Assembly (NCBI GenBank): GCA_035527895.1
Contig: DATKZQ010000017.1
Coordinates: 3,588-67,587 of the forward strand
Length of the DNA: 64,000 bases
Direction of reading: 5' to 3'
DNA from: Desulfatiglandales bacterium
GTDB lineage: Bacteria > Desulfobacterota > DSM-4660 > Desulfatiglandales > B25-G16
Positions within the stretch are counted from its first letter, which is position 1; every line of letters begins with the position of its first letter. The translations under genes and the position numbers were made by a program. The notes below the pieces were generated by a model. The model worked only from the letters and a program-made list of their open reading frames with translations, ran no database searches and was not told where the DNA came from. Shown here piece by piece: positions 17,456 to 53,716 of this stretch.

Positions 17456-17496
17456 GATTCAAATTAAAAGGGCATCTAAGATTTCAATCCTCTAAT

Positions 17497-18792: not shown

Positions 18793-18834
18793 GTCATTGC
18801 CCCATAGTACGTTGTTCTCTGCAGAGCTGTAACA

Positions 18835-19575: not shown

Positions 19576-19621
19576 ATCGAAGCTCCTAAGCTATTTCTTG
19601 TGGAAATCACTGTAATATGTC

Positions 19622-19677
19622 GCCCAACATGAAGTTCATCGGGAGCGTAAGCGATCCGGTGAAACGATTTGTTGGGC
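19622..19677 (-). other. attC site of cassette 1
   Basis: GCCCAAC...GTTGGGC flanks an imperfect palindrome, 30 nt after the ORF stop. Confidence 0.6.
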
Positions 19678-19706
19678 GGTCCTTTGCCCATTTTCTTTAC
19701 TCAGTA

Positions 19707-20330
19707 TCAGGGCTGTCCCCCTTCATTTCTGTTTTGCCAGTGAATCGGAATGTTAGGGTGCTCACCCACGAAATCCGGGTTTATGATGCAAATAGAGTCC
19801 GGCGATTGGGTCCGGTCTTTCAAGGTCGTTGGCACTCGCATATAGGCAATCGCATTCTCCAACCGGAGTTCTCGCTCTCTGACAGCAACCCGATTTGGAA
19901 GATCAAGCATCCAGCCATACTGGCTATACAGCATGCCCTCTATGTGAATGGTACTCTGGTCTTGAAAAGCAATTCTTACTACATGGTTCCGGGCCTCTTG
20001 GTTTACGCATGTAGATTTAAGTCGCGGAAGCACATCACTGCGTCCGAGCGAAAACCTCATTGCTAAGGCCTCTCCGTGCCATGGCAGGCCAAGTGCAAAA
20101 GTCCGAATTGCATCAATTATGGTCTGCGAAAATATTTGTTTAATAATTGAATATCCCACGCCCTGATTTTTCAGAAGATAGGCCAGAGCGCCAATTGATA
20201 TTTTTGCCAAGCCTCTGCAATATGTTTCCTGCTCGTGGGGTCTTAACCCGACCGGAAATGCGATTGCATATACACTTTCGGGAGGTATTTGTCTATTTGT
20301 CTCTGTCGTAGATATATCGAAAAGCTGCAT
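19707..20330 (-). CDS. Cassette 1, ORF B: hypothetical protein (partner or frameshifted C-terminal part of the HNH protein)
   Basis: A 207-aa ORF that overlaps ORF A by 38 nt in another frame. There is no attC between the two ORFs. Confidence 0.45.
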   Translation of the reverse strand: MQLFDISTTETNRQIPPESVYAIAFPVGLRPHEQETYCRGLAKISIGALAYLLKNQGVGYSIIKQIFSQTIIDAIRTFALGLPWHGEALAMRFSLGRSDVLPRLKSTCVNQEARNHVVRIAFQDQSTIHIEGMLYSQYGWMLDLPNRVAVRERELRLENAIAYMRVPTTLKDRTQSPDSICIINPDFVGEHPNIPIHWQNRNEGGQP

Positions 20331-20616
20331 CTACCCGTGGTTCTAAGCCTTCAAAATAGGAAAATTGAAACGGTCTAAGAGCACCATCAGCCAATAGGGC
20401 TTCTCCCGATCGTTTCAATGCTCTGGTGTTCTCGAACCTTACCAAGTACAGCATATCCCTCACTTCATTATCGAAGACTGAATTCGATCGGGTATTACTC
20501 GCCTCGCATACCGGCAGCCATTGATTTTCAGGGCCGTCAATAGACCTAGGTATGAAATGCTCTTGCGTCAACGAATCGTCATGATCTTCATTGCAAAGGA
20601 AACAGTAATAGCTCAT
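20293..20616 (-). CDS. Cassette 1, ORF A: HNH endonuclease-domain protein
   Basis: MSYYCFLCNEDHDDSLTQEHFIPRSIDGPENQWLPVCEASNTRSNS fits the pattern CxxC...EH...C..N. ATG 20616 lies 13 nt after the GTTGGGC junction. Confidence 0.6.
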   Translation of the reverse strand: MSYYCFLCNEDHDDSLTQEHFIPRSIDGPENQWLPVCEASNTRSNSVFDNEVRDMLYLVRFENTRALKRSGEALLADGALRPFQFSYFEGLEPRVDAAFRYIYDRDK

Positions 20617-20628
20617 TTGTTTCTGTTC

Positions 20629-20700
20629 GCCCAACCATTGATTCTTAGGCGAATTTGCCTGGTATTGGGCTATTGGGGCATAAGACAGGCAAATTTGCCT
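20629..20700. other. Candidate attI region
   Basis: GTTGGGC on the minus strand (20635-20629) lies at the start of cassette 1. Two copies of the palindrome AGGC(G/A)AATTTGCCT (20647-20660, 20687-20700) lie between it and intI. Confidence 0.45.
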
Positions 20701-20761
20701 GTTGACAATATTCAATATTTTGCCTCCCATCTGGCGGAGCTCTACAGAAACGGAGGGAGCC

Positions 20762-20980
20762 ATGGCACGCAGACTCCTCGATGAAATGCACGAGATGATG
20801 AGGCGTCGCCACTATTCGATACGTACCGAGCAGAGCTACTGTGCGTGGGTAAAGCGCTATGTGCACTTTCATAAGATGCGGAGCAGGGCGGGCCTTCGGA
20901 ACGGCGAACAAAAGATCGAAGCGTTCCTCACTCATCTTGCCATAGACCTCCGTTTGACTCCTGGAAAATGTTGTCTCTAG
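20762..20980 (+). pseudogene. intI: Integron integrase remnant (N-terminal ~65-70 residues only)
   Basis: MARRLLDEMHEMMRRRHYSIRTEQSYCAWVKRYVHFHKMRSRAGLRNGEQKIEAFLTHLAI matches the IntI N-terminal SAM-like domain (HYSxRTEQxY..W...F..FH, EAFLxHLA). The frame then ends. A GGAGGGAG RBS is present. Confidence 0.7.
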
Positions 20981-21649: not shown

Positions 21650-22135
21650 ATGGAAAGATCTCTGAAGGTAATACTTGAACCCACATGGGATGAAATAGAA
21701 AAGGCCAGGAACAGAAGCAGCGATTTCCTGAATGCCCATGGGTTATCAAATGATGCTGTGCACGCGCTTACGATGGTGGTGAGTGAACTGATCGAGAACA
21801 GTGTCAAATATGGCAAGTTCGCAGCACCGGAAAGTAAGGTAGTCGTAACGATCGATATTGAAGAAAGCATGATCTCTGTTGAAGTAGTCAACCCCGTCGA
21901 TGAAACAGCATACAAGCATTTGAAGAACCTGGATAAGACAATTCAATGGATCAGGGGACATCAAGACCCCTTTGAGGCCTATATAGAAAGACTGAGGGAG
22001 GTCTCTAGAAGACCACTGGATGATAAGGAAAGCGGCCTGGGCCTTGTCAGAATATCATATGAGGGAAGAGCTATCCTCGATTTTTTTCTTGGTGAAAATG
22101 ACCTGTTAAGCGTGTCGGCTGTTTCACCCTATTAG
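21650..22135 (+). CDS. GHKL-type anti-sigma-factor-like Ser/Thr kinase (SiaB/RsbW-like)
   Basis: N-box VVSELIENSVKYG and G-box DDKESGLGLVRI in a 161-aa protein. Confidence 0.7.
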   Translation: MERSLKVILEPTWDEIEKARNRSSDFLNAHGLSNDAVHALTMVVSELIENSVKYGKFAAPESKVVVTIDIEESMISVEVVNPVDETAYKHLKNLDKTIQWIRGHQDPFEAYIERLREVSRRPLDDKESGLGLVRISYEGRAILDFFLGENDLLSVSAVSPY

Positions 22136-22148
22136 AAAGGCTAAAGAG

Positions 22149-22526
22149 ATGACTGTGCGAGAGAAAGAGACATTTGTTAGCAATCTGCTGAAATTAGAAC
22201 TCGAGGAAAAGAAAGACTCTATCAATATCAGCTGGTCTGGAAAGAGCATAGATCGTGAGCCAGGGAAATTTATCACCCCAATTCTCGTCAACGCTATCAG
22301 GAGAAGCAGCGGGCTTAATAAAAAGATCATATTGGACTTTCGGGAGCTGGCTTATATGAATTCATCATCTATCACACCAGTCATAAAGATCCTTGAAAGG
22401 GCCAAAAGAGGGAGAACTCAAATCAGGGTTGTCTATAGAAAATCTCTGAAATGGCAAGATCTCTCCTTTTCTGCCTTAGAGATATTTAAAACCAAAGACC
22501 GCAGAGTGGAAATCAAGGGATTGTAA
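22149..22526 (+). CDS. SiaC-like (DUF1987-type) partner-switch phosphoprotein
   Basis: ISWSGKSIDREPGKFITPILVNAI...ILDFRELAYMNSSSITPVIKILERA follows the SiaC pattern (GDSYPEN..F..VIDW...L.L.L.YLNTSSIK..DIL) in a 125-aa protein. Confidence 0.6.
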   Translation: MTVREKETFVSNLLKLELEEKKDSINISWSGKSIDREPGKFITPILVNAIRRSSGLNKKIILDFRELAYMNSSSITPVIKILERAKRGRTQIRVVYRKSLKWQDLSFSALEIFKTKDRRVEIKGL

Positions 22527-22532
22527 TACAGC

Positions 22533-23927
22533 ATGCACCAAGATGCCATAAACCTAACGGCTGATCTGATCACAGGAAAAGAGAAGATACCCGTCGATGT
22601 CACCTACGCATCCAGATATTCTCTGCTGGTCCGTTACCCGGATTCACGGGCTTACGGGGATGGAGCACGTTTCTCCAAGCTCGTGATCCATCTCACCGGA
22701 GAAGATTGTGAGCTGGGTCCGTGCAGGGTCATGTCAGAACCCAACATCGATGGCTATGCAGGCAGGCTCGTTTTCCTTGAGGATGTTTATGACCTCGAAA
22801 ACCTGTTTCTTAACAACAGGATAGTCAAGCTGCAAAACGCTTTTGTTAACCTGCCGTTGGTCCTGGCTTACAAAGAGAGGATCTGCAAGGCATTTAAGGA
22901 GTATACCGCCAATCTCACGTATGATTTGAGCGTCTATAAGGGTCTCTTTGATAGCCTGGATCTGGAATTGAGTGCCGAGCCTGAGAGCACAAGAGAATCG
23001 GTCAGGAGAGCCATCATCGATACCGAGGGCAAGAAGTTCATGCGGTTCCTTGATGAGAGGCTGAAGGAACTAGGGGGCATAGTCGGTTCGTTCAACAGGG
23101 AAGAGCATGCGCAGCACGGGTTTTATTTCAGAAAACAACTGTGGAACTATATCCTCTGTTCTCCACTTCTGAAACGAACCAATCTGAAGCCAAGAGGATA
23201 CGCTGGAGATTCGGTGATGATGCAAATGATTTATGCAAACGAGCTTCAGGGTGATTCCACCTTTTCGAAGCTCATGCATAAGCATCCATTGGATCACTCT
23301 GCCGCTCGGGCTGTACGAAGCAGAAGACATGTTATAGCGAACATGGCCCGCCGTATCAGGGAATATGATACCGGTATAACGGACGGAAGATTGAAGGTCT
23401 TGTCTGTTGCCAGCGGGTCTGCAATTGAAATCGACGACATACTGGTTACTGCCGGGGATTGTGAAAAATATCATTTTGCCCTGCTCGATCAAGACCGACA
23501 GGCCCTGATCGAAGCGGCGGAGTGTATTAACCGGATTGAGAAGAAGTTAGAAGCCAAAATCAAGGTAGACTACATAAACGAATCCGTACGAACCATGCTT
23601 GCGTCGCCACAATTGAAGGGCAGGTGGGGGGAATTCGATTTCATTTATTCGATGGGGCTTTTTGATTATCTCACTCCTCGGGTGGCGTCGGCCGTGCTCC
23701 GTAAGCTTTTCCAATTGCTGAAGCCCGGTGGGGAGATGATCGCCGGAAATTTCCATACATCAAATCCGAGCAAATACTATATGGAGTATTGGGCAGACTG
23801 GGTTCTCTACCATCGAACGGAACAAGAGTTCGGAGATCTGTTAGGCAATGCTGCCTCAGCGGAAATCGATATCTTTTTCGATGATACAGAGAGTCAAATG
23901 TTTCTTCACATAAGAAAGACAGGATAG
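22533..23927 (+). CDS. Fusion protein: N-terminal domain of unknown function plus a class I SAM-dependent methyltransferase (PhcB-like architecture)
   Basis: The SAM motifs VLSVASGSAIE, LLDQD, FDFIYSMGLFDYL and LLKPGGEMIAGNF lie in the C-terminal half of a 464-aa protein. The gene starts 7 nt after the SiaC-like gene. Confidence 0.65.
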   Translation: MHQDAINLTADLITGKEKIPVDVTYASRYSLLVRYPDSRAYGDGARFSKLVIHLTGEDCELGPCRVMSEPNIDGYAGRLVFLEDVYDLENLFLNNRIVKLQNAFVNLPLVLAYKERICKAFKEYTANLTYDLSVYKGLFDSLDLELSAEPESTRESVRRAIIDTEGKKFMRFLDERLKELGGIVGSFNREEHAQHGFYFRKQLWNYILCSPLLKRTNLKPRGYAGDSVMMQMIYANELQGDSTFSKLMHKHPLDHSAARAVRSRRHVIANMARRIREYDTGITDGRLKVLSVASGSAIEIDDILVTAGDCEKYHFALLDQDRQALIEAAECINRIEKKLEAKIKVDYINESVRTMLASPQLKGRWGEFDFIYSMGLFDYLTPRVASAVLRKLFQLLKPGGEMIAGNFHTSNPSKYYMEYWADWVLYHRTEQEFGDLLGNAASAEIDIFFDDTESQMFLHIRKTG

Positions 23928-24138
23928 CGATGACATGCGCTGTGCATACTGACCCCTTTTTTCTTAACTGGAGGGTGTTTTTGTCCGTCTTTGGCCGGTG
24001 AGTCATGAAACGTTCTTTGAATCGACACGTTTGACACCTATGGAGGCCTTTCACGGAGGGACAATAAATGCGGTTTCCGATGTTTATCACCTTATCTGAG
24101 TTATAGAAGGATGGCTAACGTTTAAACCCGGGATTGAG

Positions 24139-25509
24139 ATGAGCCTCATTGCTAACACGACAGAGCAGTTCGATTATGATGCCGATCAATTCGAAAGCTA
24201 CCTCAGCAGCATCATCCATGAGTGGCTGAAAACTCTCACTATTCTGGCATTCCTAATGGTTCCGGCATTCCTGATACTGGATTATTTCATAATGCCTAAG
24301 GAGCTTCTCCAGCGATTTGTTATTTACAGATCCATTTCTACACTCATCGTGATCATCCAATATGCCATTGTTCGTCAAACCAGAGCAAGCAGGCTCTCTT
24401 ACATCCACGGGTATGTTGTTTCAGTGAATATTGGAGGAATGATAGCGCTGATGACAGTTGATCTGGGAGGGTTTAATTCCAGTTATTACGCGGGCCTGAA
24501 TCTCGTTATTATTGGGGTAAATCTCTGGATACCATGGAAGACCCTCCACTCAGCCCTCAATAGCATCATAGTTATTTCCTTGTATATCTTATTGAATGTC
24601 ATTGCAGGTCATCCATATGCTCATTCGCCCCTCATCAATAACCTCTTTTTTCTGTTCTCAACAGCAATCATTGCCGTGAGCATAAACCATGTGAAACACA
24701 AACTTGTCAAACAGGAGTTTTACCTGCTTGTTGAGTTGAAAAAGGCCCGGGATGCGCTCTGGAGTGAGATGGAACTGGCAAAACGGATACAAACAGCACT
24801 TTTGCCGGACAGGGAAAAGGTTAAGGGCTTTGAAATTGCCGCTACCATGGTCCCGGCCAAAGAGGTAGGTGGCGATTATTACGATATCATCGAAACCCCA
24901 ACGGGGGATAAATGGGTTACCATTGGTGACGTGTCGGGCCATGGGGTTGATTCAGGGCTGATTATGATGATGGCACAAACAAGTATTCTTTCGACGGTAC
25001 ATAGTTCAACGGACTGTAGGCCATCAGCGGTTCTCCAATCGGTAAACTCGATTCTGAGAGAGAATATTTCGAGGTTGGGATCCGACCACTACATGACCAT
25101 GATGGCCATCCGGTTCAATGAATCACAAATGACCCTGGCCGGAAAACACCAAGATATCATAATTCATAGATCTGCATTGAATAAAACCGAAACCATCCCT
25201 ACAAAAGGAACGTGGCTGGGAATCGATGAAGATATCGGGAAATACTTGGATGATGTTTCGGTGACCATAGAGGAAGGCGATCTCATACTGCTATTCACCG
25301 ATGGCATCACCGAGGCTACAAACAGGAATGGGGAGATGTATGGACAGGTTCGCCTCGAACAGGCCCTGAATGAATACGCAGATTTGCCCGTCCGTAAGAT
25401 CCTCGACAAGGTAATCGAAGACGTAACGGTCTTTCAGGAAGAACAACTGGATGATATGACCTTGGTAGTAATCAAGAAAGGCGATCCGAGTTCAACCTAC
25501 TGGCATTAG
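24139..25509 (+). CDS. Membrane-anchored PP2C/SpoIIE-family Ser/Thr phosphatase (SiaA-like)
   Basis: A ~190-aa multi-TM N-terminus is followed by EVGGDYYDI, GDVSGHGVDSGLIMMMAQT, FTDGITEA and DDMTLVVIK. Confidence 0.8.
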   Translation: MSLIANTTEQFDYDADQFESYLSSIIHEWLKTLTILAFLMVPAFLILDYFIMPKELLQRFVIYRSISTLIVIIQYAIVRQTRASRLSYIHGYVVSVNIGGMIALMTVDLGGFNSSYYAGLNLVIIGVNLWIPWKTLHSALNSIIVISLYILLNVIAGHPYAHSPLINNLFFLFSTAIIAVSINHVKHKLVKQEFYLLVELKKARDALWSEMELAKRIQTALLPDREKVKGFEIAATMVPAKEVGGDYYDIIETPTGDKWVTIGDVSGHGVDSGLIMMMAQTSILSTVHSSTDCRPSAVLQSVNSILRENISRLGSDHYMTMMAIRFNESQMTLAGKHQDIIIHRSALNKTETIPTKGTWLGIDEDIGKYLDDVSVTIEEGDLILLFTDGITEATNRNGEMYGQVRLEQALNEYADLPVRKILDKVIEDVTVFQEEQLDDMTLVVIKKGDPSSTYWH

Positions 25510-25538
25510 GCATTTCTAACCATTTAAAGCAGGTAGAC

Positions 25539-27842
25539 ATGACGGTTGTTTCCTTTTCAGCAAATGAAATAAAGGCAAACCTGCTGACGCTGTCCTTTCC
25601 CAAAGAACTTGAGCAGGCCTTTCTTGATGACTATTTTGAAAAATCGTTACGACATGTGCGCATAGCCTTGCTTTTGGGTTTCTTTTTTTACGGGATTTTC
25701 GGAATTCTCGACGCATGGCTCGTTCCAGACGTGAAGGAGACACTATGGCTTATTCGCTATGCCATTTTTTTTCCTTTTCTGCTTGGGGTATTCCTGTTCT
25801 CCTACTCCATTCATTTCAAGAAATTCATGCAGCTATCGATTGCAGGTGTAATCTTGGTAGCTGGACTGGGCATCATCGCGATGATCCTGATTGCTCCGGA
25901 TCCGGGGAGTTATCTGTATTACGCGGGCTTGATTCTGATCTTTCTTTTTGGATACACCTTTTTCAAACTCCGATTCATCTGGGCAACCGTCACAGGCTGG
26001 ACGCTCGTGATTGCCTACGAAATCTCAGCTATATGGTTGACTCAGACCCCCATTCCCATTCTGATTAACAACAACTTCTTCTTCCTTGCAGGCAATGTAA
26101 TCGGGATGTTTGCCTGTTACTCCATCGAGTTCTATTCACGTAAGGACTTCATCCAGGCCCGTCAACTGCAAGCGGAGAAGAAAAAGGTCACTGACGCCAA
26201 CCGAGAACTGGAGGAAAGAGTTGAGGAACGGACCGCACAACTCACGAGAACAAATGAGGAACTCAGGCAAGAGATAGAAGAACGCAGACGGGCACAGGAA
26301 GCACTGCACGAGAGCCAGAAACGTTACCGCGACCTCTTCGAGCAGTCCAGGGATCCAATCTTTATTAATTCGCGAGAGGGCAAACTTATTGACGTTAACC
26401 AGTCCTTTCTGGATCTGCTTGGCTATACCAAATCAGAGATAGGAAATCTCAAATCTCAAGAGACATATGCTAACCCGGATGACCGGTCCAGATTTCAGCA
26501 CGAGATAGAACAAAAGGGATCTGCCACGGACTTTGAGTTGAAATTAAGGAAGAAGGATGGCACAGAGATAGATTGCCTGCTCACTGCGACTGTGCGGAAG
26601 GCTGAAGATGGGGCAATTCTGGGATACCAGGGAATCATACGTGACATCACTGAGCACAAGCGCGCGGAAGAGGAAAGAAAGAAGCTTGAAGTCCAGCTGG
26701 CGCGAGCCCAAAGGATGGAGGCTATGGGTACGCTAGCTGGGGGTGTGGCACACGATTTCAACAATATCCTTGCAGCTATCGTCGGCTATGTGGAGCTTTC
26801 AATGCTGGATGTCGTCGAAGACACCAAAGTGAAGCACAATCTGGAAGAAGTGCTAAGGGCCGGCAAGCGGGCGAAAGACCTGGTGAACCAGATTCTTGCC
26901 TTCAGCCGGCAAAGCCGAAATGAGCTGAAACCCGTGGAGATTACCCCGGTTGTGAAAGAGGCCTTAAAGCTCTTGAGGGCCTCTTTACCTACCACTATTG
27001 AGATCCGCCACCACGTGGAGCCTGATACCGGGACTATAGAGGCGGATCCTACCCAGATCCATCAGGTTCTCATGAACCTTTGCACCAATGCGGCCCATGC
27101 CATGAGTGAGGAAGGCGGGCTGTTGGAGGTGAGTGTCACAAAGGTTGCTATAGATGCCTCTGCTGCACCGCTGAATTTAGATATAGATTCGGGACCGTAT
27201 CTGAAGATGTCCGTACGTGATACCGGTCATGGGATGACTTCTAAGGTATTGGAAAGGATCTTCGATCCCTATTTTACCACCAAGGAGAAGGGCAAGGGAA
27301 CCGGACTGGGATTGGCGGTGGTACACGGCATTGTGAAGAGCCACAAGGGCGGCATTGGTGTGGAGAGTGAGCCCGGGAGTGGAACATGCTTTCATGTATA
27401 CTTTCCGAGGATAGAGCAAAAGAAAGAGCTGACCGACACCGAGACTGTCCAACCCTTTCCCACAGGGCACGAGTGTGTGCTTTTCGTAGACGATGAGCAG
27501 GATCTGGTGCAGATAGCGGCGCAGATGTTATCTCATCTCGGGTATGAGGTCACAACAAGAATGAGCAGCAACGAGGCCTTGGAGTTGTTCCGCGTAAACC
27601 CAGAGCGGTTCGATCTGGTTATTACCGACATGACCATGCCGAATATGACGGGAGATACGCTGTCCAAAGAACTCATGAAGATTCGCCGCGACATCCCAAT
27701 TATACTGTGCACCGGATTCAGTGAACGTATCAGTGAGGAGAAGGCAAAGGCTATAGGGATTAAGGAATTCGTCATGAAACCCCTTGCGATGGGCGATCTT
27801 GCCAAGCGAGTACGAAAGGTGCTGGACAACGAGCGCTTTTAA
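25539..27842 (+). CDS. Hybrid sensor histidine kinase (multi-TM sensor, coiled coil, PAS, HisKA, HATPase, receiver)
   Basis: H-box GGVAHDFNNIL, N-box LMNLCTNAAHAM, G-boxes VRDTGHGM and GTGLGLAVV, and a receiver domain (VLFVDDE...LVITDMTMPNMTG). Confidence 0.9.
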   Translation: MTVVSFSANEIKANLLTLSFPKELEQAFLDDYFEKSLRHVRIALLLGFFFYGIFGILDAWLVPDVKETLWLIRYAIFFPFLLGVFLFSYSIHFKKFMQLSIAGVILVAGLGIIAMILIAPDPGSYLYYAGLILIFLFGYTFFKLRFIWATVTGWTLVIAYEISAIWLTQTPIPILINNNFFFLAGNVIGMFACYSIEFYSRKDFIQARQLQAEKKKVTDANRELEERVEERTAQLTRTNEELRQEIEERRRAQEALHESQKRYRDLFEQSRDPIFINSREGKLIDVNQSFLDLLGYTKSEIGNLKSQETYANPDDRSRFQHEIEQKGSATDFELKLRKKDGTEIDCLLTATVRKAEDGAILGYQGIIRDITEHKRAEEERKKLEVQLARAQRMEAMGTLAGGVAHDFNNILAAIVGYVELSMLDVVEDTKVKHNLEEVLRAGKRAKDLVNQILAFSRQSRNELKPVEITPVVKEALKLLRASLPTTIEIRHHVEPDTGTIEADPTQIHQVLMNLCTNAAHAMSEEGGLLEVSVTKVAIDASAAPLNLDIDSGPYLKMSVRDTGHGMTSKVLERIFDPYFTTKEKGKGTGLGLAVVHGIVKSHKGGIGVESEPGSGTCFHVYFPRIEQKKELTDTETVQPFPTGHECVLFVDDEQDLVQIAAQMLSHLGYEVTTRMSSNEALELFRVNPERFDLVITDMTMPNMTGDTLSKELMKIRRDIPIILCTGFSERISEEKAKAIGIKEFVMKPLAMGDLAKRVRKVLDNERF

Positions 27843-36143: not shown

Positions 36144-36467
36144 CAAGAACGAACGGATTCTTAAGGGTAAGCACCTCAACCTCTTTATCAGGGTAAAGGT
36201 AGTTAGTCAAAGGGTTTCCTGTCGACTACATCACCGAAAACACAATGAAATGGTGATTGAGGACCTGCAGCATTCTCGTACCTGCAGGAGTTAGCGTAAC
36301 AAAGGGTAAAAACCGGGGTTTTGAGAATATTGGTCGTTTCATTGTGTGCCGGGTTCTTGAATGCCCCTCTAAAAAGGCAAGAGCTTCGATAAAATTTTCC
36401 TTGAGTTACATGAGGCCTTAATTGTATTGTACCCGAAAAAAATAGTTACCTGGGAAAGGAAGATATC

Positions 36468-36791
36468 ATGAGGAATGGAAAAATTGCTGTAGGTATTTCG
36501 CTCCTATGCCTCTTTGTAATGTTCGGGTGCCATTACGCGCGTACGGCAGGAACGGCGAGGACAGTTGAGTTAACGGTAATGAATGTTCCTGCCGGCTGCT
36601 GAGGTCAGCCACAAGATAGGATAAGGTCTATCCTAATAAATGCTGAAGGGGTGTTGAACTTCGGTCTGTACCCGGAATCTTTCACGGTAACGGTAACATT
36701 CGATCCGGAAAAGACCACTGTACAAGAGATTATTGAAGTCCTCTCAGAGGGAGGATATCCGGTTTCAGGAGAACCTAAGTGGGTGAAGTGA
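36468..36791 (+). CDS. Secreted/lipoprotein HMA-like protein with an in-frame TGA (candidate selenoprotein), copy 1
   Basis: The signal peptide has an FGC lipobox-like end. The frame reads ...MNVPAGC-TGA(36600-36602)-GQPQDRIRSIL...FTVTVTFD...GGYPVSGEPKWVK* and is paralogous across the TGA to 52210..52539. Confidence 0.65.
36603..36648 (+). promoter_or_regulatory. Candidate bacterial SECIS stem-loop
   Basis: CAGC-cacaaga-TAGGATA-aggtc-TATCCTA-ataaat-GCTG. The upper stem begins 14 nt after the TGA and is conserved in the paralogue. Confidence 0.5.
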
Positions 36792-37014
36792 ATTGTTTTC
36801 GCCCTGAATAGCATAGCCTTTTAGTCAGGGTGACCTCGTGCAATCGAGGTGGCCACGTGTGGTTGCTCGGATCGCGGCGCAGTGGTCCAAACAATCATTA
36901 GAGTTATAAAGAGTATTACGGTCCCCGATAGGCTTGGAAAATTTCTGAGAGAATGAGTTCCGGCGCCAATCCCAGAAATTGCCTAACAGGAACAGCAGGG
37001 TGGTGACCTACCGT

Positions 37015-37932
37015 CTAAACTGCCTTTAGCATCTTATCCACGGCTGCCTTCGCCTTCAGGCGGATCTTCTTTGGGACCTTGATCTGATGTTTCATTTCAT
37101 CCAATGAACTGAGGACCTTCTCGAGGGTAATCAACTTCATATTAGGGCAAACCGCTTGCCCTGAGGCAGGAATAAACTCCTTGCCCGGGTTCTCCTTTCT
37201 GAGCCGATGGAGTATCCCAATCTCGGTGCCCACTATCATTGTGCTGACATCCTGTCTCATGGCGTACCGGCACATCCCTCCAGTACTTAGGACTTCATCG
37301 GCGAGGGCGACAACATCCGGCCGGCACTCGGGATGAACAATAACCTTTGCCGAGGGATATTTCTGCTTCAGATCGGTAATATGTTTTGGGAGTATCTTGA
37401 GATGCGTGGGGCAATAGCCCGGCCAGAAGACCAAATCCTTGTCAGTCTTCATGGAGACATAATGGCCGAGATACTTGTCAGGGACAAATAGTATCTCTTC
37501 GCGATCGAGGCTTTCTACAACCTTGAGGGCATTGGCCGAGGTACAGCAAACATCTGATTCTGCCTTGACCTCTGCGGTTGAATTGATATAGCAGACCACG
37601 GCAGCCCTCGGGTGTTCCCGTTTCATCGCCCTCAATTCTTCAGCAGTGACCATGTTTGCCATGGGACAGCCGGCATTCATATCGGGAAGCACGACAATCT
37701 TGTCCGGGCAAAGGATCGAAGCTGTTTCCGCCATAAAATGGACCCCGCAAAAGACTATCACTGCTGCATCGGTTCCAGCAGCGGTTTGGCTTAACCCCAA
37801 CGAATCGCCGACGAAATCAGCTATATCTTGAACTTCGCCCCGTTGGTAGTTATGAGCCAAAATGACGGCGTTTCTCTCTCTTTTCAGCTTTACTATGCTT
37901 TCTTTAAGTTTTTCATTACTGTTCTGCATCAA
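37015..37932 (-). CDS. nadA: Quinolinate synthase
   Basis: AVILAHNYQRGEVQDIADFVGDSL, VHPEC and LSTGGM in a 305-aa protein. Confidence 0.9.
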   Translation of the reverse strand: MMQNSNEKLKESIVKLKRERNAVILAHNYQRGEVQDIADFVGDSLGLSQTAAGTDAAVIVFCGVHFMAETASILCPDKIVVLPDMNAGCPMANMVTAEELRAMKREHPRAAVVCYINSTAEVKAESDVCCTSANALKVVESLDREEILFVPDKYLGHYVSMKTDKDLVFWPGYCPTHLKILPKHITDLKQKYPSAKVIVHPECRPDVVALADEVLSTGGMCRYAMRQDVSTMIVGTEIGILHRLRKENPGKEFIPASGQAVCPNMKLITLEKVLSSLDEMKHQIKVPKKIRLKAKAAVDKMLKAV

Positions 37933-38713
37933 TCACGATTCTCCACTCATGAGTATAGACATTCATTCTCTTCCCTCTCACATAACCAATAAGGGTTATG
38001 CCCAATTCATCGGCTAACTTCACCCCGAGATCAGTAGGCGCGGATTTCGAGATGATTATGGGAATGGTTCTCTTGGCTACCTTGAGCAATATCTCGGAGG
38101 AGATTCTGCCGCTGGTGACTATTACGTGTTCATCGGTTGGCAAATCTTGTAGAAGACATTGACCGAAGATTTTGTCAATGGCATTGTGTCTGCCGATGTC
38201 CTCGGCGAAGAGGAGAATGTCCCCTGCGTCACAAAGAGCAGCACTATGCACGCCACCAGTCATCCTATAAAGCTTTGAGCGGTGATGGAATGCCTTCATC
38301 AGGGCGAAAACGTCTTCCGCTAATAACCTTATTTGGGATTCCACCCTTGCCATAGCTCCCACATCAGCAGAGCTGTAAAAGGAGGCTCCCCTTCCGCACC
38401 CTGAGGTTATGAAACGCTTGAATACGAGTTCGCCGGCTGATTCGTTATCTTCTTCGGTTTCGACACGGACCACACCTCTCTTTTCGTCAACCGTTATCTT
38501 CTTGATCTCATCCTTGCTACTTATCAAGCCTTCAGAATAAAGGAAGCCGACAGCCAGGTATTTCAAATCCTTTGGTGTGCATAACAGGGTCACCAATTCC
38601 CTATTGTTGAGCATGATGGTAAGGGGACGTTCCCGGGCTACTAAGTCCTCTATCCTGTTTTTGTCCTTTTCAGTAAAACGCACTATAGAAAGTTTCTGTG
38701 TTTCGTCTGCCAT
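37916..38713 (-). CDS. fdhD: Formate dehydrogenase accessory sulfurtransferase FdhD, paralogue 1
   Basis: SGCGRG, TGGVHSAALC, EDIGRHNAIDK and SGRISSEILLK. Confidence 0.85.
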   Translation of the reverse strand: MADETQKLSIVRFTEKDKNRIEDLVARERPLTIMLNNRELVTLLCTPKDLKYLAVGFLYSEGLISSKDEIKKITVDEKRGVVRVETEEDNESAGELVFKRFITSGCGRGASFYSSADVGAMARVESQIRLLAEDVFALMKAFHHRSKLYRMTGGVHSAALCDAGDILLFAEDIGRHNAIDKIFGQCLLQDLPTDEHVIVTSGRISSEILLKVAKRTIPIIISKSAPTDLGVKLADELGITLIGYVRGKRMNVYTHEWRIVIDAEQ

Positions 38714-45951: not shown

Positions 45952-47166
45952 CTATTTTTCAAGAGGCCTTTCCCTAAGCGGTTTGCACGTGGTGCCCGTT
46001 TCAGGCCCTGGGAAAAAGCCTACCGGTTCAGTGAGCAGAAAGTCCCCTTTCTCAATCCATTCCTTTAATGTTTTGGCTATCTCTACTGCCTTGGGATAAC
46101 TTGAAAGGCTCCCGGTGGGAACCGCCATGCCTTGAACGGTGATCTTACCGCTCTTGAGCTGGGCGTAGTTCACTTCGCCGAGGCTCCCCTTTTTTCCCTG
46201 AGGATAGCTCTCGCCGTAGTCGACGATCTGAGTCCATAGCTCCTCGTCATTTACTGCGGTATACGTACACATTTCCTCATTTAGGATGGGAATCGGAACG
46301 CCGATGCCAACGGTAAGGGTTGTTCCGTAACCTTGCATGGATGTACCTGCCAGCCATTCGGCGCTCATCTGTTTCAAATCTCCGATAACGGCTAAGGTTC
46401 CTGAAGGAACACACGGTGTACCGTTGTCTTTGCGCTGAACCGCGGGGTTAAACTGAGTCCCCTGCCAGACTACGTAGCCGATTCCCCCTCCCAAGAAGAT
46501 TCTTGTGCCGATGCCAATTGTCTTATAATAGGGATCGTTCAAGAGAGGAGAGAGCTGCCCAGCGCTGCAATAGTTAGCACTGCCTAGATTGGGCTTGAGC
46601 ATCCCCATGTAAGTATAAATAGCCGTATTACCCAGGTTAACAGCTACGTTGTAATTCTGGTAGGCATTCCTGGGATTGAAAAGCACCGCTTCATTGAGAT
46701 CTCTAATATTGACCCAGGTTTCCAGTTTCCTCCTTGGATAACAATCTGTTCCGTAAGCATTGGCAACCAGCTTTAGATCTTTGCCGGCTACCAAATCTTC
46801 GATTACGTGACCACCACCGTACCTGAACTCACCGGGGAAGGTTTTATTCCTCGGGTCATCATCAGGTAGAGCGGTTGCCCCGATGAAGGTATCGACGGCA
46901 GCAAGGCCGGTATAAAGAGGCACGTCATTCAGATAGGCCCGTTCTCCACCCAGTTTTATCTTAGGGGTGCTGTGCCCGATGTTAAAGTAGGCACCGGATG
47001 AACACATCGGACCAAAGGTACCCGTTGTGACCACGTCCACCTGCTGAGCTGCTTTCTTAGCTCCCTTCTCTTCGACAATGTCGATAATCTCCTCGGCAGT
47101 CACTACGACTGCCTCTCCTCTCTTGATCTTTTCATTGATCTCTTTGATGGTCTTAGCCATGTTCAA
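45952..47166 (-). CDS. COG1900/DUF39 homocysteine biosynthesis protein (MA1821-like)
   Basis: A 404-aa protein: KTIKEINEKIKRGEAVVVTAEE...VDVVTTGTFGPMCSSGAYFN.... It is adjacent to the NIL-ferredoxin gene. Confidence 0.7.
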   Translation of the reverse strand: MNMAKTIKEINEKIKRGEAVVVTAEEIIDIVEEKGAKKAAQQVDVVTTGTFGPMCSSGAYFNIGHSTPKIKLGGERAYLNDVPLYTGLAAVDTFIGATALPDDDPRNKTFPGEFRYGGGHVIEDLVAGKDLKLVANAYGTDCYPRRKLETWVNIRDLNEAVLFNPRNAYQNYNVAVNLGNTAIYTYMGMLKPNLGSANYCSAGQLSPLLNDPYYKTIGIGTRIFLGGGIGYVVWQGTQFNPAVQRKDNGTPCVPSGTLAVIGDLKQMSAEWLAGTSMQGYGTTLTVGIGVPIPILNEEMCTYTAVNDEELWTQIVDYGESYPQGKKGSLGEVNYAQLKSGKITVQGMAVPTGSLSSYPKAVEIAKTLKEWIEKGDFLLTEPVGFFPGPETGTTCKPLRERPLEK

Positions 47167-48305: not shown

Positions 48306-48647
48306 TTACTCCCCTTCATCCAGGGCGATTTTCCTTACGGTGATTTCCCAATCGGTATTATCGATCCGAGTTACTGACAGAATCTCATGTCCCTCGTTTT
48401 TCAAACTTCTGGGAACATTCTCTGCAGAGGGAGGGTAGTCCACAGTTACGCGCAGCACCTCTCCAACCTCCATTTCCTCCAGGGCGAGCAAGGACTTGAC
48501 AAAGGTATAGGGACACACTTCTCCTTTGAGATCGATCTCCCGATTAATTTTCGGTGCTTCATTGGTCTCATTTCTGGCTCCGCAGATTTCTTCCGGTCTA
48601 GCTTCGGCGCGCATCGTGCCTCCTTTCGAATTCTTCTGGTGTTTCAT
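48306..48647 (-). CDS. TusA/SirA-like sulfurtransferase
   Basis: DLKGEVCPYTFVKSLLALEEM carries the Cys-Pro motif. It follows the MoeB/ThiF gene after a 7-nt gap. Confidence 0.75.
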   Translation of the reverse strand: MKHQKNSKGGTMRAEARPEEICGARNETNEAPKINREIDLKGEVCPYTFVKSLLALEEMEVGEVLRVTVDYPPSAENVPRSLKNEGHEILSVTRIDNTDWEITVRKIALDEGE

Positions 48648-48654: not shown

Positions 48655-49458
48655 CTAACTGATTCTGCAAAACTGTTCGTAATCGATGAGTTCTTTTATG
48701 GTAGGGCTGTTTCCACAAAGGGCACAGTCGCCTCTGTGACTGACCTGTACTTTCGAAAACTCCATGTGTAGTGCATCAAATAGTAGCAGCGTTCCTGTCA
48801 GCGGTTCTCCTAAACCCAGGATAAGCTTGATCGCCTCATTCGCCTGGATGGCGCCGACAATTCCGGTAAGGGCACCCAAGACGCCTGCCTCCTGGCAACT
48901 GGGTACCATGTCCGGCGGCGGTGGGGCAGGCCATAGGCAGCGAAGGCACCCATTGCCGGGAACGAATACAGTAACTTGACCTTCAAATCGTAAAATGCCA
49001 GCATGGACGTCGGGCTTGCCCGCTAAGAAGCAGGCATCGTTCACTAGATACTTCGTGGGGAAGTTGTCGCTACCCTCGACGACAATATCGTAGTCGGCAA
49101 TGATGTCCATGATATTCTCTGAGGAAAGCCGCAACGGGTACTGGACGACTTCGACGTCAGGGTTTATGTCATTGAGTGCTTCCGCTGCAGAAACCACTTT
49201 TGGTCTCCCGAGGTCGCGGGTGTGGTGAAGAATCTGGCGCTGTAAATTGCTCAAATCGACACGATCAGAATCACAAATCCCGAGCTTCCCTACCCCAGCT
49301 GCTGCTAGGTATATGGCCGCTGGAGAACCTAAACCTCCTGCACCGACCATGAAAACCTTGGCCTCCAGGAGTTTCCTTTGTCCTTTTCCTCCGACCCCGG
49401 GGAGGACAATTTGACGGCTATAGCGCCTAATCTGTTTTTCTGTTAAACCCATGTACAT
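48655..49458 (-). CDS. MoeB/ThiF/HesA-family adenylyltransferase (E1-like)
   Basis: YSRQIVLPGVGGKGQRKL, VGAGGLGSPAAIYLAAAGVG, CLRC and CALC. Confidence 0.85.
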   Translation of the reverse strand: MYMGLTEKQIRRYSRQIVLPGVGGKGQRKLLEAKVFMVGAGGLGSPAAIYLAAAGVGKLGICDSDRVDLSNLQRQILHHTRDLGRPKVVSAAEALNDINPDVEVVQYPLRLSSENIMDIIADYDIVVEGSDNFPTKYLVNDACFLAGKPDVHAGILRFEGQVTVFVPGNGCLRCLWPAPPPPDMVPSCQEAGVLGALTGIVGAIQANEAIKLILGLGEPLTGTLLLFDALHMEFSKVQVSHRGDCALCGNSPTIKELIDYEQFCRIS

Positions 49459-50270: not shown

Positions 50271-51482
50271 ATGCTAAGAAGATGGCCTACATATTTCCGT
50301 CAGATGGGGCCTGCCTGGATCATTAGTGCCGTAGCCTGTGGACCTGCCACGCTTGCCAGTGTATGCATCGCAGGGGCCTCCTACGGGTTTGAGCTCTTGT
50401 GGGTTGTAATCTTGAGTGCGATCTTTGGAGCTACTGCTCAATACCTTGGAGCCAGAATCGGAATCCTGGAGGGCAGGGGAGTTATTGCCACAGTTGAAGA
50501 CCGTCTCGGCCCCATTTGGGCGTGGGTTTTGGCCATTGATGCCGCTCTTGCAACGTATCTTGCCGCACTGGTCTTAATGAACGCCTTGGTTGGCGTCACC
50601 TCAATTGTAACGGGGATTGAGAGCCCCTGGTGGGGAATACTGTACGCAATCATAATCTCACTGGCGCTGATTCGTGGCGGTTACCGGTGGTTTGAGAACC
50701 TTTGCAAAGCCCTTGTAGGGTTCGTGGTGTTATGTTTTATCATAACGGCGTTCCAGGCCGATTTCACGGTCGTTGATGTCGTTAGAGGTATTCTCCCCAA
50801 CATTCCTGGCGGGATTGACTCGGCCCTTATGATTGCGGCCATATTGGGAGGTGCCGTTCACATAACCATCATCGGCATGCACAGCTATAACACCAATGCC
50901 AGGAAGTGGTCTAGAAAAGACCTGGGTTTGGCCCGGTTCGACAACACCCTTTCCATGGGATTCGCCTTCGGCATTTACAGCGTGGCCATTTTTCTCGTGG
51001 CTGCCGCGGTTTTGCATCCAAACCAGATAAAGGTAAAACTGGCCACCGACGCTGCTTTGAGCCTTGGGCCATTGCTTGGTAAGCATGCAATGGTCATATT
51101 TCTCATTGGTTTGTGGGCCGCTACCCTTTCTACCATATCACCTACATTTTTGGCCGGCACCTATTTCATATTTGACAAAATGAAATGGGACATGAACCCT
51201 GAAACTAGAAAATTCCATATGGTTATTCTCGGGGGAGCATTGTTGAGTGCGTTCGGCCCATTTATGAAGGGAAGTTTTTTCCTGCTTCTTCCGCTGATGC
51301 TCGCTCTTGGACTGTGCGGGACCCCGCTCATTATTGCCATTATGCTCTATCTGCTAAATAAAAGGAACATAGTGGGAGAATACAGGAATTCGGTTGTGCT
51401 TAATGTCTTGGGGGGCCTCACCCTTTTGGTGACGAGCGTGGTTGCAGTGAGATTCATTCTAGTTAAGGTTGGTTTTGTTTAA
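50271..51482 (+). CDS. mntH: NRAMP-family divalent metal transporter
   Basis: A 403-aa polytopic protein with MGPAWIISAVACGPATLASV and typical NRAMP N-terminal motifs. Confidence 0.8.
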   Translation: MLRRWPTYFRQMGPAWIISAVACGPATLASVCIAGASYGFELLWVVILSAIFGATAQYLGARIGILEGRGVIATVEDRLGPIWAWVLAIDAALATYLAALVLMNALVGVTSIVTGIESPWWGILYAIIISLALIRGGYRWFENLCKALVGFVVLCFIITAFQADFTVVDVVRGILPNIPGGIDSALMIAAILGGAVHITIIGMHSYNTNARKWSRKDLGLARFDNTLSMGFAFGIYSVAIFLVAAAVLHPNQIKVKLATDAALSLGPLLGKHAMVIFLIGLWAATLSTISPTFLAGTYFIFDKMKWDMNPETRKFHMVILGGALLSAFGPFMKGSFFLLLPLMLALGLCGTPLIIAIMLYLLNKRNIVGEYRNSVVLNVLGGLTLLVTSVVAVRFILVKVGFV

Positions 51483-52036
51483 TGCCGTCGCAAACTAAGC
51501 ATGAAAGAGGAATGAGCGTTCACGAATTCAAGAACAAAAAGATCATTATTGTGGGTGAGGTGAACACCGGGAAAACGACCTACCTGAGCAAACTCATAAA
51601 CGAATTCATCTTCGAGGGTGAAGATGACCTTGCCCTCATAGATATGGCCCCAGAACGGACGAAAGGCGTTGGCGGAAAGATGAACATAGAGGCCGGTGAT
51701 GTTATAAGGTGTTACACAGCACCAATCGTGGCACCCAGGCTCATGGGGAGGAGCACTGATGAAGTCGAGACGCTGGCGAAACAAAATGCGGAATTGATAG
51801 AGAACATCTTTCTCGAATACCTAAAGAATCCCGGCAAGACCCTTTTTGTAAACGATATTTCACTCTACTTGCAGGCCGGAGCGCTTTACAAACTCCTTTC
51901 ATGGCTCAACTCAACACCCACGGTGATTATGAACGGTTATTACGGATCGAGTCTTGGGGGAGGGGAACTGGGAAGGAGGGAGAGAAAGAACATGCAGTCT
52001 CTTATGGAAAGGTGCGATCGGATAATTCAGCTTTGA
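51482..52036 (+). CDS. P-loop NTPase of unknown function
   Basis: Walker A GEVNTGKTT. The ATG overlaps the NRAMP stop (TAATG). ATG 51512 is an alternative start. Confidence 0.55.
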   Translation: MPSQTKHERGMSVHEFKNKKIIIVGEVNTGKTTYLSKLINEFIFEGEDDLALIDMAPERTKGVGGKMNIEAGDVIRCYTAPIVAPRLMGRSTDEVETLAKQNAELIENIFLEYLKNPGKTLFVNDISLYLQAGALYKLLSWLNSTPTVIMNGYYGSSLGGGELGRRERKNMQSLMERCDRIIQL

Positions 52037-52209
52037 GAAAACCATCGCAATGCTCTTCAGAGAGGCACCCAGGCTGTCCGGTCGAAGGCGACAACTTATT
52101 TAGTTCATTGCCCCACATGAGTTCATCGTTTTCCAGAGTTGTTGCTTTTGAATCGACCTGATATGTGATTAAGTTAATCAGAGACGTTTCAATTGAAAGG
52201 GAGGATTCC

Positions 52210-52539
52210 ATGAAATATAGAAAGATTCTCTTGTTCCTGGCAGCGGCTGGTCTTTTACTACTTTACGTTTCACAAGCCCTTCTAGCGGCCACACCTGAGG
52301 CAACGGTTAAGTTAACCGTACCGAATTTGCCTGCGCCAGGTGGTGGGTGAGGTGATCCACAGGAAGGGATAAAGTCTATCCTGACGAGTATTGATGGCAT
52401 AACGAAATACCATCTTGACGCAGAAGCCTTCACGGTCACGGTTACCTTTGATGATAGTAAGACCACCGTTAACCTGATCATGGAAAGGCTTGCAAAGGGA
52501 GGCTACCCGGTCAAAGGCGAACCCCGTTGGGTAGAGTAA
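52210..52539 (+). CDS. Secreted HMA-like protein with an in-frame TGA (candidate selenoprotein), copy 2
   Basis: GGGAGG RBS and a signal peptide. The frame reads ...PNLPAPGGG-TGA(52348-52350)-GDPQEGIKSIL...FTVTVTFD...GGYPVKGEPRWVE*. Confidence 0.65.
52366..52382 (+). promoter_or_regulatory. Candidate SECIS upper stem-loop
   Basis: GGGATA-aagtc-TATCCT lies 15 nt after the TGA and is homologous to 36617..36635. Confidence 0.45.
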
Positions 52540-52696: not shown

Positions 52697-52969
52697 TTAG
52701 CCTCCCGCAATCATGAGGGTTATTGAGAGCTTATCGCCGTCCTTGACCGGTTTGGCAAGTTCCTCCGGGTAGGAGCTTTCGGCGTTGACGTAGATATCAA
52801 TATAGTTGAGCAGCTTTCCCTTCTTGTCGAAAAGCTTGCTCTTGATGTCGGGAAACCTCTGCACCAAGTCAGCGAGGCACTCACCTACGGTGGCACCTGA
52901 AACGTTAACTGTGGCCTGATTGTTCGTGATATGGCGTAATGCCTGGTGAATATTTACCGTTATGCTCAA
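52697..52969 (-). CDS. MoaD/ThiS-family ubiquitin-like sulfur carrier
   Basis: A 90-aa protein ending ...ITLMIAGG*, with the C-terminal Gly-Gly. It follows ThiF after a 3-nt gap. Confidence 0.8.
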   Translation of the reverse strand: MSITVNIHQALRHITNNQATVNVSGATVGECLADLVQRFPDIKSKLFDKKGKLLNYIDIYVNAESSYPEELAKPVKDGDKLSITLMIAGG

Positions 52970-52972: not shown

Positions 52973-53716
52973 CTACTCCTTTCTCGTCGCCTGACCGCAG
53001 TGCTCGCAATGGGGGTCTTTCTTGACCCTCAATTCGGTGAACTGCATGCTGAGCCCGTCATAAATTAAGAGTTTATTGATCAGAAGTTCACCAACCCCCA
53101 CGAGGTACTTTACTGCCTCGGTTGCCTGAATGCAGCCGATAACCGCCGGTGTAACTCCAATCACCGGGAATTTCTCTTCAGGAATAACCCCCCGATACAC
53201 ACATCTGAGGCATGCCGATTTGCCGGGGACGATGGTCATAGCCCTTCCTTCGAACCCGTAGACTGCTCCATGAAAGAAGGGGATATTGTTTTCGATGGCG
53301 ACCTTGTTTAACAGGTATCTCGTGGGCAGGTTATCCATGGCATCAACAATGAGATTGCAGTCGGATACCAGGTGATCGAGATTGGCTTCCGTTATCGTAT
53401 CTCCGATGGCCTCTATTTTCACGTCCGGATTCAGTCTCATGAGCTTTTCTTTGGCTGAGTCAACCTTGCTCTTGCCCCGGTCTTCATGCCAGTGCAGGAT
53501 CTGCCGATTCAGGTTGCTGAGCTCGACCGTATCATGGTCAACGATTCGTATGCTGCCAATGCCGGCCGCAGTCAAATAGACGGCAGCCGGAGACCCGAGC
53601 CCGCCAGCACCGGCGATGAGCACGCGGGCCTTCTTGAGCCTTTCTTGCCCTTCCTCGCCGAAGCCCTGAATCATTATTTGCCGGTCATACCGTTCTCGTT
53701 CACGAGCGGTTAACAT
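52973..53716 (-). CDS. ThiF/MoeB/HesA-family adenylyltransferase (E1-like)
   Basis: YDRQIMIQGFGEEGQERL, AGAGGLGSPAAVYLTAAGIG, CLRC and CEHC. Confidence 0.85.
   Translation of the reverse strand: MLTARERERYDRQIMIQGFGEEGQERLKKARVLIAGAGGLGSPAAVYLTAAGIGSIRIVDHDTVELSNLNRQILHWHEDRGKSKVDSAKEKLMRLNPDVKIEAIGDTITEANLDHLVSDCNLIVDAMDNLPTRYLLNKVAIENNIPFFHGAVYGFEGRAMTIVPGKSACLRCVYRGVIPEEKFPVIGVTPAVIGCIQATEAVKYLVGVGELLINKLLIYDGLSMQFTELRVKKDPHCEHCGQATRKE

Follow-up and report, generated by a model that had tools for sequence, protein, structure and literature searches.

The closest described systems are MerP and two families of selenoproteins with heavy-metal-associated (HMA) domains. MerP (TIGR02052; structures 1osd and 1afi) consists of a signal peptide and a single HMA domain of about 70–75 residues, with the motif GMTCxxC in the loop between strand beta1 and helix alpha1. 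The UxxU (seleno)protein NF041115 ('putative mercuric reductase', of the Olavius symbiont selenoproteome) has two selenocysteines (Sec, U), and the MerT/CopZ fusion-like heavy metal transport selenoprotein NF045683 is a fusion of 235 positions that includes a MerT membrane domain; HMA-type selenoproteins are therefore already known, and the kind as such is not new. Here we report two small genes, copy 1 (36468–36791) and copy 2 (52210–52539), in a 64-kb stretch of the Desulfatiglandales contig DATKZQ010000017.1 (the whole stretch being referred to as the window), which almost certainly encode exported proteins of a metal-binding fold with a conserved in-frame TGA that is read as Sec with the help of a downstream hairpin. 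The fuller reading, to which we give a probability of roughly 85%, is that both loci are genuine selenoprotein genes in which the hairpin directs UGA to Sec, and that the product is an exported MerP-like HMA protein with a predicted metal-binding selenolate.

MerP is the best profile and structural match, and the two products share with it the signal peptide, the single HMA domain of similar length, the G-Y-P motif before the last strand and a reactive chalcogen in the beta1–alpha1 loop. They differ from it in having x-x-U-G-x-P-Q in place of GMTCxxC, with a loop about three residues longer, in having one Sec and usually no Cys, and in that neither MerT, MerA nor MerR is found among the conserved neighbours of the family. 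With NF041115 they share the HMA-type domain, Sec in place of a metal-binding Cys and an occurrence in marine Deltaproteobacteria, but they have a single Sec plus a signal peptide and score only 21.3 and 15.0 bits against its cutoff of 95. NF045683 is likewise a selenoprotein with an HMA-like module, but is matched at only 20–22 bits (cutoff 375) and in its C-terminal module alone, the proteins being just 107–109 residues long and having no MerT domain.

No model of NCBIfam release 20.0 reaches its cutoff for the family or its sister forms, nothing in a 2026 inventory of 119 prokaryotic selenoprotein families matches a secreted, single-Sec, MerP-like protein, and a 2022 selenoprotein review contains no matching family either. 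The 'MerP' selenoprotein of the 2008 Global Ocean Sampling catalogue was considered as the same family and rejected, its two reads (HHARTSAPAGTUCQSGVQ...) being dissimilar. Judged from sequence, the unusual features of the subfamily are the lone Sec, the lack of members with Cys in place of Sec, and a putative selenocysteine insertion sequence (SECIS) that is conserved at the nucleotide level. The parts of the two genes are as follows.

36452–36462, plus strand: ribosome-binding site (RBS) of copy 1, GGGAAAGGAAG, read from the sequence, 5–6 nt upstream of ATG 36468.
36468–36791, plus strand: copy 1 gene, 107 codons, putative secreted MerP-like HMA selenoprotein; terminal stop TGA at 36789–36791.
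36468–36530, plus strand: predicted signal peptide of copy 1, ending VMFGC, a possible lipobox (Cys21); hydrophobic helix at residues 5–25 in the structure model.
36600–36602, plus strand: putative Sec-encoding TGA of copy 1, codon 45, motif G-C-U-G.
36617–36635, plus strand: SECIS-type apical hairpin of copy 1, with 5′ arm 36617–36623, loop AGGUC 36624–36628 and 3′ arm 36629–36635.
36605–36646, plus strand: optional lower stem of copy 1, UCAGC 36605–36609 with GCUGA 36642–36646, from the minimum free energy (MFE) fold.
36605–36814, minus strand: antisense open reading frame (ORF) of 69 amino acids, regarded as an artefact and not a gene.
52196–52204, plus strand: RBS of copy 2, AAAGGGAGG, read from the sequence.
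52210–52539, plus strand: copy 2 gene, a 109-codon paralogue with the motif G-G-U-G and a mature protein without Cys; orthologue L010 in the metagenome-assembled genome (MAG) CP070657.1.
52348–52350, plus strand: putative Sec-encoding TGA of copy 2, codon 47, the only in-frame TGA.
52366–52382, plus strand: SECIS-type hairpin of copy 2, GGGAUA, loop AAGUC, UAUCCU, starting 15 nt after the TGA.

Conservation of the TGA codon and the downstream reading frame

Copy 1 reads from ATG 36468 in a single frame with one internal TGA at 36600–36602, at the position given in the preliminary description of this DNA, and translates as MRNGKIAVGISLLCLFVMFGCHYARTAGTARTVELTVMNVPAGC-TGA-GQPQDRIRSILINAEGVLNFGLYPESFTVTVTFDPEKTTVQEIIEVLSEGGYPVSGEPKWVK-stop. 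Good RBSs precede the ATGs of both copies, and after the TGA of copy 1 the first in-frame start is GTG 36651, where the only purine-rich stretch directly abuts the GTG; the earlier statement that no start with a usable RBS follows the TGA thus stands. The paralogue was said to carry TGA at the homologous codon and to be at least as similar downstream of it as upstream, which is what we find: the two copies are identical at 35 of 62 residues after the TGA and at about 13 of 44 before it. A third copy is absent from the window.

Relatives were collected by back-translated pattern scans with PQDRIRSIL, the peptide encoded by the hairpin, and with FTVTVTFD, which is independent of it, yielding 10 loci in Deltaproteobacteria and Desulfobacteraceae MAGs and 79 in metagenomes. 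In all, 91 related loci (Desulfobacteraceae/Deltaproteobacteria MAGs and sediment metagenomes; L numbers below) were fetched, giving 93 gene copies with the two of the window, and conservation statistics were taken over the 72 distinct genes among them. L001 and L010, both from MAG CP070657.1, are the orthologues of copy 1 and copy 2.

The TGA occupies the same codon, and the same alignment column, in 93 of 93 copies (and in 70 distinct local sequences), with protein identities ranging down to about 40%. The frame beyond it is open to the same C-terminus in all copies without frameshifts, the one exception being a C-terminal TGA in L011, and orthologues that stop at the TGA and have a decayed downstream frame were looked for and are not seen. 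Pooled pairwise ratios of nonsynonymous to synonymous substitution (dN/dS) are 0.46 in the signal peptide, 0.21 in the mature part before the TGA and 0.30 after it, which shows the reading frame downstream of the TGA to be under purifying selection. The exception in L011 (at about 520–534) is a second TGA that takes the place of a conserved Trp codon, three residues ahead of the C-terminus (EPK-TGA-VK). A small truncation or a mistake in the assembly could account for it, and it is the probable reason why the gene caller went over to genetic code 4.

A hairpin frozen at the nucleotide level

The preliminary description placed a stem-loop 14–15 nt after the TGA in both copies, and it is present at 36617–36635 and 52366–52382. 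In copy 1 it reads TAGGATA-AGGTC-TATCCTA and begins 14 nt after the TGA; the common form in the family is GGAUA-AGGUC-UAUCC. The hairpin lies within the codons for D-R-I-R-S-I-L, and the codons AGG ATA AGG TCT ATC (R-I-R-S-I) show no synonymous change at all in the 72 distinct genes in spite of degeneracies of 6, 3, 6, 6 and 3. By comparison, variation is seen in every one of the 28 other degenerate codons that are well conserved, and reaches 2.1 bits (Fisher test, about 4e-6 by our own arithmetic), and the synonymous rate dS is 0.20 in the hairpin and 0.8–1.05 elsewhere. RNAalifold returns exactly the 7-bp helix. Five of its pairs are invariant, and among 61 distinct sequences pair 19–35 is AU in 54, GU in six and unpaired in one, while pair 18–36 is UA in 41, CG in eight, UG in four and unpaired in eight. 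It is the suppression of synonymous change, and not covariation, that is the main support for the hairpin. The lower stem is seen in the MFE fold of copy 1 only and is unconserved in the family alignment, which makes it weak.

Published criteria for bacterial SECIS (bSECIS) elements ask for an apical loop of 3–9 nt, an upper stem of 4–16 bp, a G in the first two loop positions, a spacing of 16–37 nt from the UGA and an MFE of −7.5 kcal/mol or lower (PMC13188914). Copy 1 passes all of them, with the 5-nt loop AGGUC, a 7-bp stem, a G at loop position 2, a spacing of 21 nt and an MFE of −12.5 kcal/mol. The loop AGGUC contains the GGUC of the Escherichia coli fdhF SECIS loop (SECIS_2, RF01988), whose sequence was confirmed in 5,419 of 5,426 E. 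coli genomes (under fdhF in the matches listed) and then folded. The two elements share the apical A-GGUC-U motif and differ in that the loop G-U of the family hairpin sits 4 nt further from the UGA, in the 7-bp upper stem without a bulged U, and in the absence of any detectable match of the family hairpin to RF01988 or RF01989. Promoter and terminator scans around both copies were uninformative.

Sister subfamilies and a Sec/Cys pair

A profile search of 1.84 billion representative proteins places the genes in a wider group of secreted HMA-like proteins of about 100 residues that share the C-terminal tail G-x-P-x-[WFY]-[VIL]-x and have loops reading C-x-W, C-x-x-W, C-x-C or C-x-x-C, or no Cys. 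The sister subfamilies (e.g. the protein entries P0021, P0089, P0182 and P0195) resemble that of the window in length, signal peptide, C-terminal tail and the spacing from Sec/Cys to helix alpha1. They keep a Cys 2–3 residues before the Sec/Cys position and include all-Cys members, whereas the subfamily of the window has U-G-x-P-Q with variable or absent Cys.

These sisters supply a control on the role of the hairpin. The W is a TGA in all three W forms for which DNA was fetched (L092, L095 and L096), and in these C-x-U/C-x-x-U members a homologous hairpin, AGGGUA...UAUCCU, follows the TGA at the same distance. In L100 (P0182), a C-x-x-C form closely homologous to L096, the codon is TGC, and the hairpin codons have become AAG TTG GCG GCT GTC, which are unable to pair; the C-x-C form L101 also has TGC and no hairpin. 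The hairpin thus travels with the TGA, as in a classical Sec/Cys pair, and at the superfamily level the aligned sequences indicate that such a pair exists. An earlier proposal was to ask whether relatives have TGA or a Cys codon at the aligned position; the answer is that Cys homologues exist in the sister subfamilies and that the hairpin is absent there.

A single HMA fold spans the TGA

For Pfam scoring U was replaced by C, and the structure model was run with X at the Sec position. Against a gathering threshold of 24.8, Pfam HMA (PF00403) scores 23.0 bits in copy 1 and 25.4 bits in copy 2, and the best NCBIfam match of both is MerP TIGR02052 (31.5 and 42.7 bits, below the equivalog cutoff of 92.55). 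A PDB profile search finds MerP 1osd at 1e-7, with Sec aligned to a Cys of the CxxC loop of MerP and CopA and the G-Y-P motif in common. The AlphaFold model has a mean predicted local distance difference test score of 78 and about 90 for the domain, with the signal helix at residues 5–25 followed by a beta-alpha-beta-beta-alpha-beta domain (E31–37, H48–57, E62–68, E73–78, H85–94, E99–106). In this model Sec45 lies in the beta1–alpha1 loop three residues ahead of helix alpha1, and one fold spans the TGA, beta1 being encoded upstream and alpha1 to beta4 downstream. Foldseek ranks MerP 1osd (TM-score 0.85) and 1afi first, and the top 50 matches listed are HMA domains or proteins containing them. 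The HMA fold proposed from sequence inspection is borne out by the PDB profile search and the structure model, together with the Pfam and NCBIfam matches, of which only that of copy 2 to Pfam HMA reaches its threshold.

The loop reads N-[LV]-P-x-G-x-U-G-x-P-Q, and the GMxCxxC motif is absent. Judged by the CxxU/CxxC sisters, Sec would be the counterpart of the second Cys, and in an ungapped alignment with CopA it falls on the first. Two elements of the preliminary description apply more narrowly than proposed. The C-U dipeptide is real in copy 1 and is not conserved: no Cys occurs anywhere in the mature protein in 40 of the 72 distinct genes, and otherwise a Cys is found at −1 relative to Sec in 16 (G-C-U-G, as in copy 1), at +1 in 12, at −2 in two and at −3 in two. 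Similarly, every member has a hydrophobic helix at the N-terminus, and the lipobox-like end, F-[GA]-C, is confined to the copy 1 clade, most members having an ordinary signal peptide with AxA-like sites and no Cys.

Proposed mechanism and function

We propose that translation runs from the ATG through the signal peptide and strand beta1 to the in-frame UGA, where the hairpin 14–15 nt downstream would recruit SelB with Sec-tRNA(Sec), so that Sec is inserted in place of termination. Because the hairpin is written into the D-R-I-R-S-I-L codons at the start of helix alpha1, the family keeps both this peptide and the precise codons for it unchanged. The product would then be exported, copy 1 possibly as a lipid-anchored protein and copy 2 and most relatives as soluble proteins of the periplasm. 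There the beta-alpha-beta-beta-alpha-beta domain, closest to MerP, would present its selenol in the loop where MerP and CopZ have CxxC, and the fold suggests that the selenolate binds a thiophilic (soft) metal ion. A vicinal Cys would complete the ligand set where there is one; most members have no second thiol, and in these the remaining ligands would have to come from another protomer, a partner protein, a small thiol or sulfide. The role may be that of a periplasmic metal buffer or chaperone, alongside Nramp in the case of copy 2 or a CDF exporter in many relatives.

Several observations weigh against this reading, and they concern the hairpin, the protein and the genomes. First, covariation in the hairpin is modest, with a compensatory change at one base pair only, and single-sequence folding energies are weak (z = −1.6 in copy 1 and −0.3 in copy 2). 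Copy 2 fails one bSECIS criterion, its loop AAGUC (52372–52376) having a G only at position 3, so that the likeness to bacterial SECIS elements noted earlier is complete for copy 1 and incomplete for copy 2. The G-to-A change at the first loop G is unique among the 61 distinct sequences, the other 60 having AGGUC (58) or AGGUA (two, including the copy 2 orthologue L010); the G-U is kept, and the AAGUC loop may lower the efficiency of read-through. The Rfam SECIS models (RF01988–RF01991) match neither the whole window at gathering thresholds nor 141-nt slices around the Sec codons at E-values up to 10; the E. coli fdhF control scores 87 bits, which indicates that these models work but are specific to gene families. 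Secondly, no Cys-for-Sec member of the U-G-x-P-Q subfamily occurs among the 93 copies, in a search biased against Cys variants without the hairpin because the PQDRIRSIL pattern sits on the hairpin peptide, and the 40 distinct genes with a lone Sec and no Cys make canonical two-thiolate HMA chelation impossible in the monomer. Thirdly, selA, selB, selC and selD are found neither in the 64-kb window nor in the fetched flanks (Pfam having been run on essentially all large ORFs of the window), other TGA-split genes in the window and all loci are only off-frame artefacts, no mer or cop operon partner (MerR, MerT or MerA) is among the conserved annotated neighbours, and the neighbours differ between clades. 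ARAGORN finds no tRNA genes, including tRNA-Sec, in the window, and none in the 91 loci. As background, and not as a test, large selenoproteomes are a known feature of the hosting clade (PMC1976440; PMC8318568).

Alternative explanations

The main functional rival accepts a real selenoprotein and takes Sec as a redox or chalcogen-transfer centre in place of a metal ligand, e.g. in a selenol/thiol oxidoreductase of the periplasm, a scavenger of peroxide or polysulfide, or a carrier of sulfur or selenium; we consider it possible, though on balance unlikely. The G-C-U-G of the copy 1 clade speaks for it, this being the redox-active C-terminal motif of mammalian thioredoxin reductase. The U-C, C-x-U and C-x-x-U of other clades could, like it, form selenenylsulfides, and sulfur-relay genes abound in the neighbourhoods (ThiS, ThiF/MoeB, FdhD, MOSC and TusA). 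Most known selenoproteins, moreover, are redox proteins (PMC13188914). However, a resolving Cys is absent in those same 40 genes, the fold and the nearest structures are those of metal binders and not of oxidoreductases, and the products of the neighbouring sulfur-relay genes are cytoplasmic, most of these genes lying on the opposite strand.

A bolder version of the metal-binding reading, which we think improbable, is that the lone-selenolate HMA protein serves the acquisition of trace metals in sulfidic habitats, as a periplasmic factor of a new kind. Sec, in a dimer or together with the co-encoded TPR lipoprotein, would pull thiophilic metals or thiometallates (thio-molybdate, thio-tungstate, Cu, Zn) out of their sulfide complexes and pass them on to transporters, and the FdhD, MoeB/ThiF, MoaD/ThiS and MOSC neighbours would then reflect a link to the maturation of Mo/W-Sec formate dehydrogenase and not mere synteny.

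That the TGA is an ordinary stop, leaving a gene for a 44-residue peptide with untranslated or separately translated sequence behind it, or else a pseudogene, is what public annotation implies: the protein search returns N-terminal fragments ending ...PAGC, C-terminal fragments and 107-residue proteins with Trp at the TGA, and public gene callers cut copy 2 to a 61-amino-acid product ending there. The lack of Sec machinery in the window and fetched flanks is in keeping with this view. We nevertheless hold it to be very unlikely, as the downstream frame is open to the same C-terminus in all 93 copies at a dN/dS of 0.30, the HMA fold needs both halves of the gene, a usable start after the TGA is absent, a nucleotide-frozen hairpin stands at SECIS distance, and close homologues have TGC at that codon.

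Reading of the TGA as Trp or Gly under an alternative genetic code (table 4 or 25) is suggested by full-length database entries with W at the TGA position (P0002–P0005, P0013 and P0014), and is extremely unlikely. The DNA of two full-length entries does not yield them under table 11, which identifies them as code-4 miscalls, and P0014 also reads real stops as W. Metagenome gene callers (those of ENA and JGI in the five entries checked) sometimes use code 4 on short contigs, putting Trp at the Sec codon, as in P0002–P0005, P0013, P0014, P0021, P0089 and P0171; a Trp aligned to the Cys of homologues flagged a TGA in five of five entries checked. Furthermore, TGA ends 11 of 32 Pfam-supported genes in the window and 55 of the 72 family genes, including copy 1, from which we conclude that the code is standard, and the ten genome loci are from Deltaproteobacteria, Desulfobacteraceae or, in one case, Pseudomonadota MAGs.

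We give almost no credence to the antisense ORF (36605–36814) as the real gene, although it appears in six-frame ORF lists and antisense ORFs of at least 90 amino acids recur in 36 loci, since its frame is interrupted in 38 of the 72 distinct homologues and only the other 34 keep it open over 100 codons or more, whereas the sense frame has an RBS, a signal peptide, HMA homology and a dN/dS below 1; the earlier warning that the six-frame track misleads here was well founded.

Genomic context and other features of the window

The genes near the family vary, with several recurrent associations: a divergent Rrf2 regulator at 37 loci, a TPR lipoprotein immediately upstream on the same strand at 29, FdhD within 4.5 kb at 27, a convergent CDF exporter at 20, and ThiS and ThiF within 4.5 kb at 19 and 15, respectively. 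Loosely, this context points to divalent-metal handling, and it is not decisive. The upstream TPR protein (L061 4207–4887 and 28 other loci) is absent at both window copies. Its signal peptide is of the lipoprotein type (...GLIAGAGC-SKG), which would place it in the periplasm together with the selenoprotein and makes it a candidate partner. Copy 1 stands alone, with pgpA and nadA-fdhD on either side on the opposite strand. Downstream of copy 2, also on the opposite strand, are ThiS, ThiF, CutA1, FdhD, MOSC and Rrf2, and its upstream context is as follows.

50271–52036, plus strand: Nramp metal transporter (50271–51482) and a P-loop protein (51482–52036), on the strand of copy 2 and 174 nt upstream of it.

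The start of the P-loop protein, which has 184 residues, a Walker A motif GEVNTGKT and no Pfam family, overlaps the Nramp stop. The arrangement of Nramp and P-loop genes upstream recurs in L010, and the P-loop family also adjoins the selenoprotein gene, arranged differently, in L002.

The proximity of FdhD, ThiS and ThiF holds in clades that are only 40–50% identical, usually on the opposite strand. The window has two fdhD genes (37916–38713 and 54047–54826), one near each selenoprotein copy, and a ThiF/MoeB-like pair (48655–49458 and 52973–53716); the latter were considered as the known MoeB-type selenoprotein and rejected, both ending in TAG without an extension. Other sulfur-relay or molybdenum-cofactor sulfuration genes are ThiS-like 52697–52969, CutA1 53734–54090, MOSC 54816–55271, TusA 48306–48647 and HcyBio 45952–47166.

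Elsewhere in the window there are two complete TRAP transporter sets (DctP, DctQ, DctM) at 1024–4124 (plus strand) and 8289–11307 (minus strand). A Mutator-family (IS256-like) transposase (14752–15993, plus strand) lies beside a block of genes without Pfam family (15977–20763, minus strand) that includes a TIR/SEFIR-domain protein (18835–19575) and a SEC-C-motif protein (17497–18645), and the region 14752–20763 is possibly an islet of mobile or defence genes. The genes at 21650–27842 (plus strand) make up a partner-switching or signalling module, with an HATPase_c_2 anti-sigma-like kinase, a 464-amino-acid protein without Pfam family, a phosphatase of the SpoIIE type and a hybrid histidine kinase that has PAS and receiver domains.

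Significance

Selenoprotein genes are systematically mis-annotated, and no correctly translated full-length member of this family is present in the protein databases searched; every public call here stops at the TGA or misreads it through code 4. This offers a heuristic, in that a Trp at a Cys-aligned site in code-4 calls from non-Mycoplasma metagenomes marks candidate selenoproteins. The matched pair of a TGA with the hairpin and a TGC without it is a convenient system for the study of SECIS evolution, and the overlap of hairpin and coding sequence is a clean natural case in which an RNA signal holds a segment of protein sequence fixed. For the selenoprotein catalogue, the family would add an exported Sec form of the classic MerP/CopZ fold that is frequent in the sediment metagenomes searched (79 loci in one scan). 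With one Sec and no Cys in most members, metal binding by the monomer would need ligands other than those of the usual two-thiolate site.

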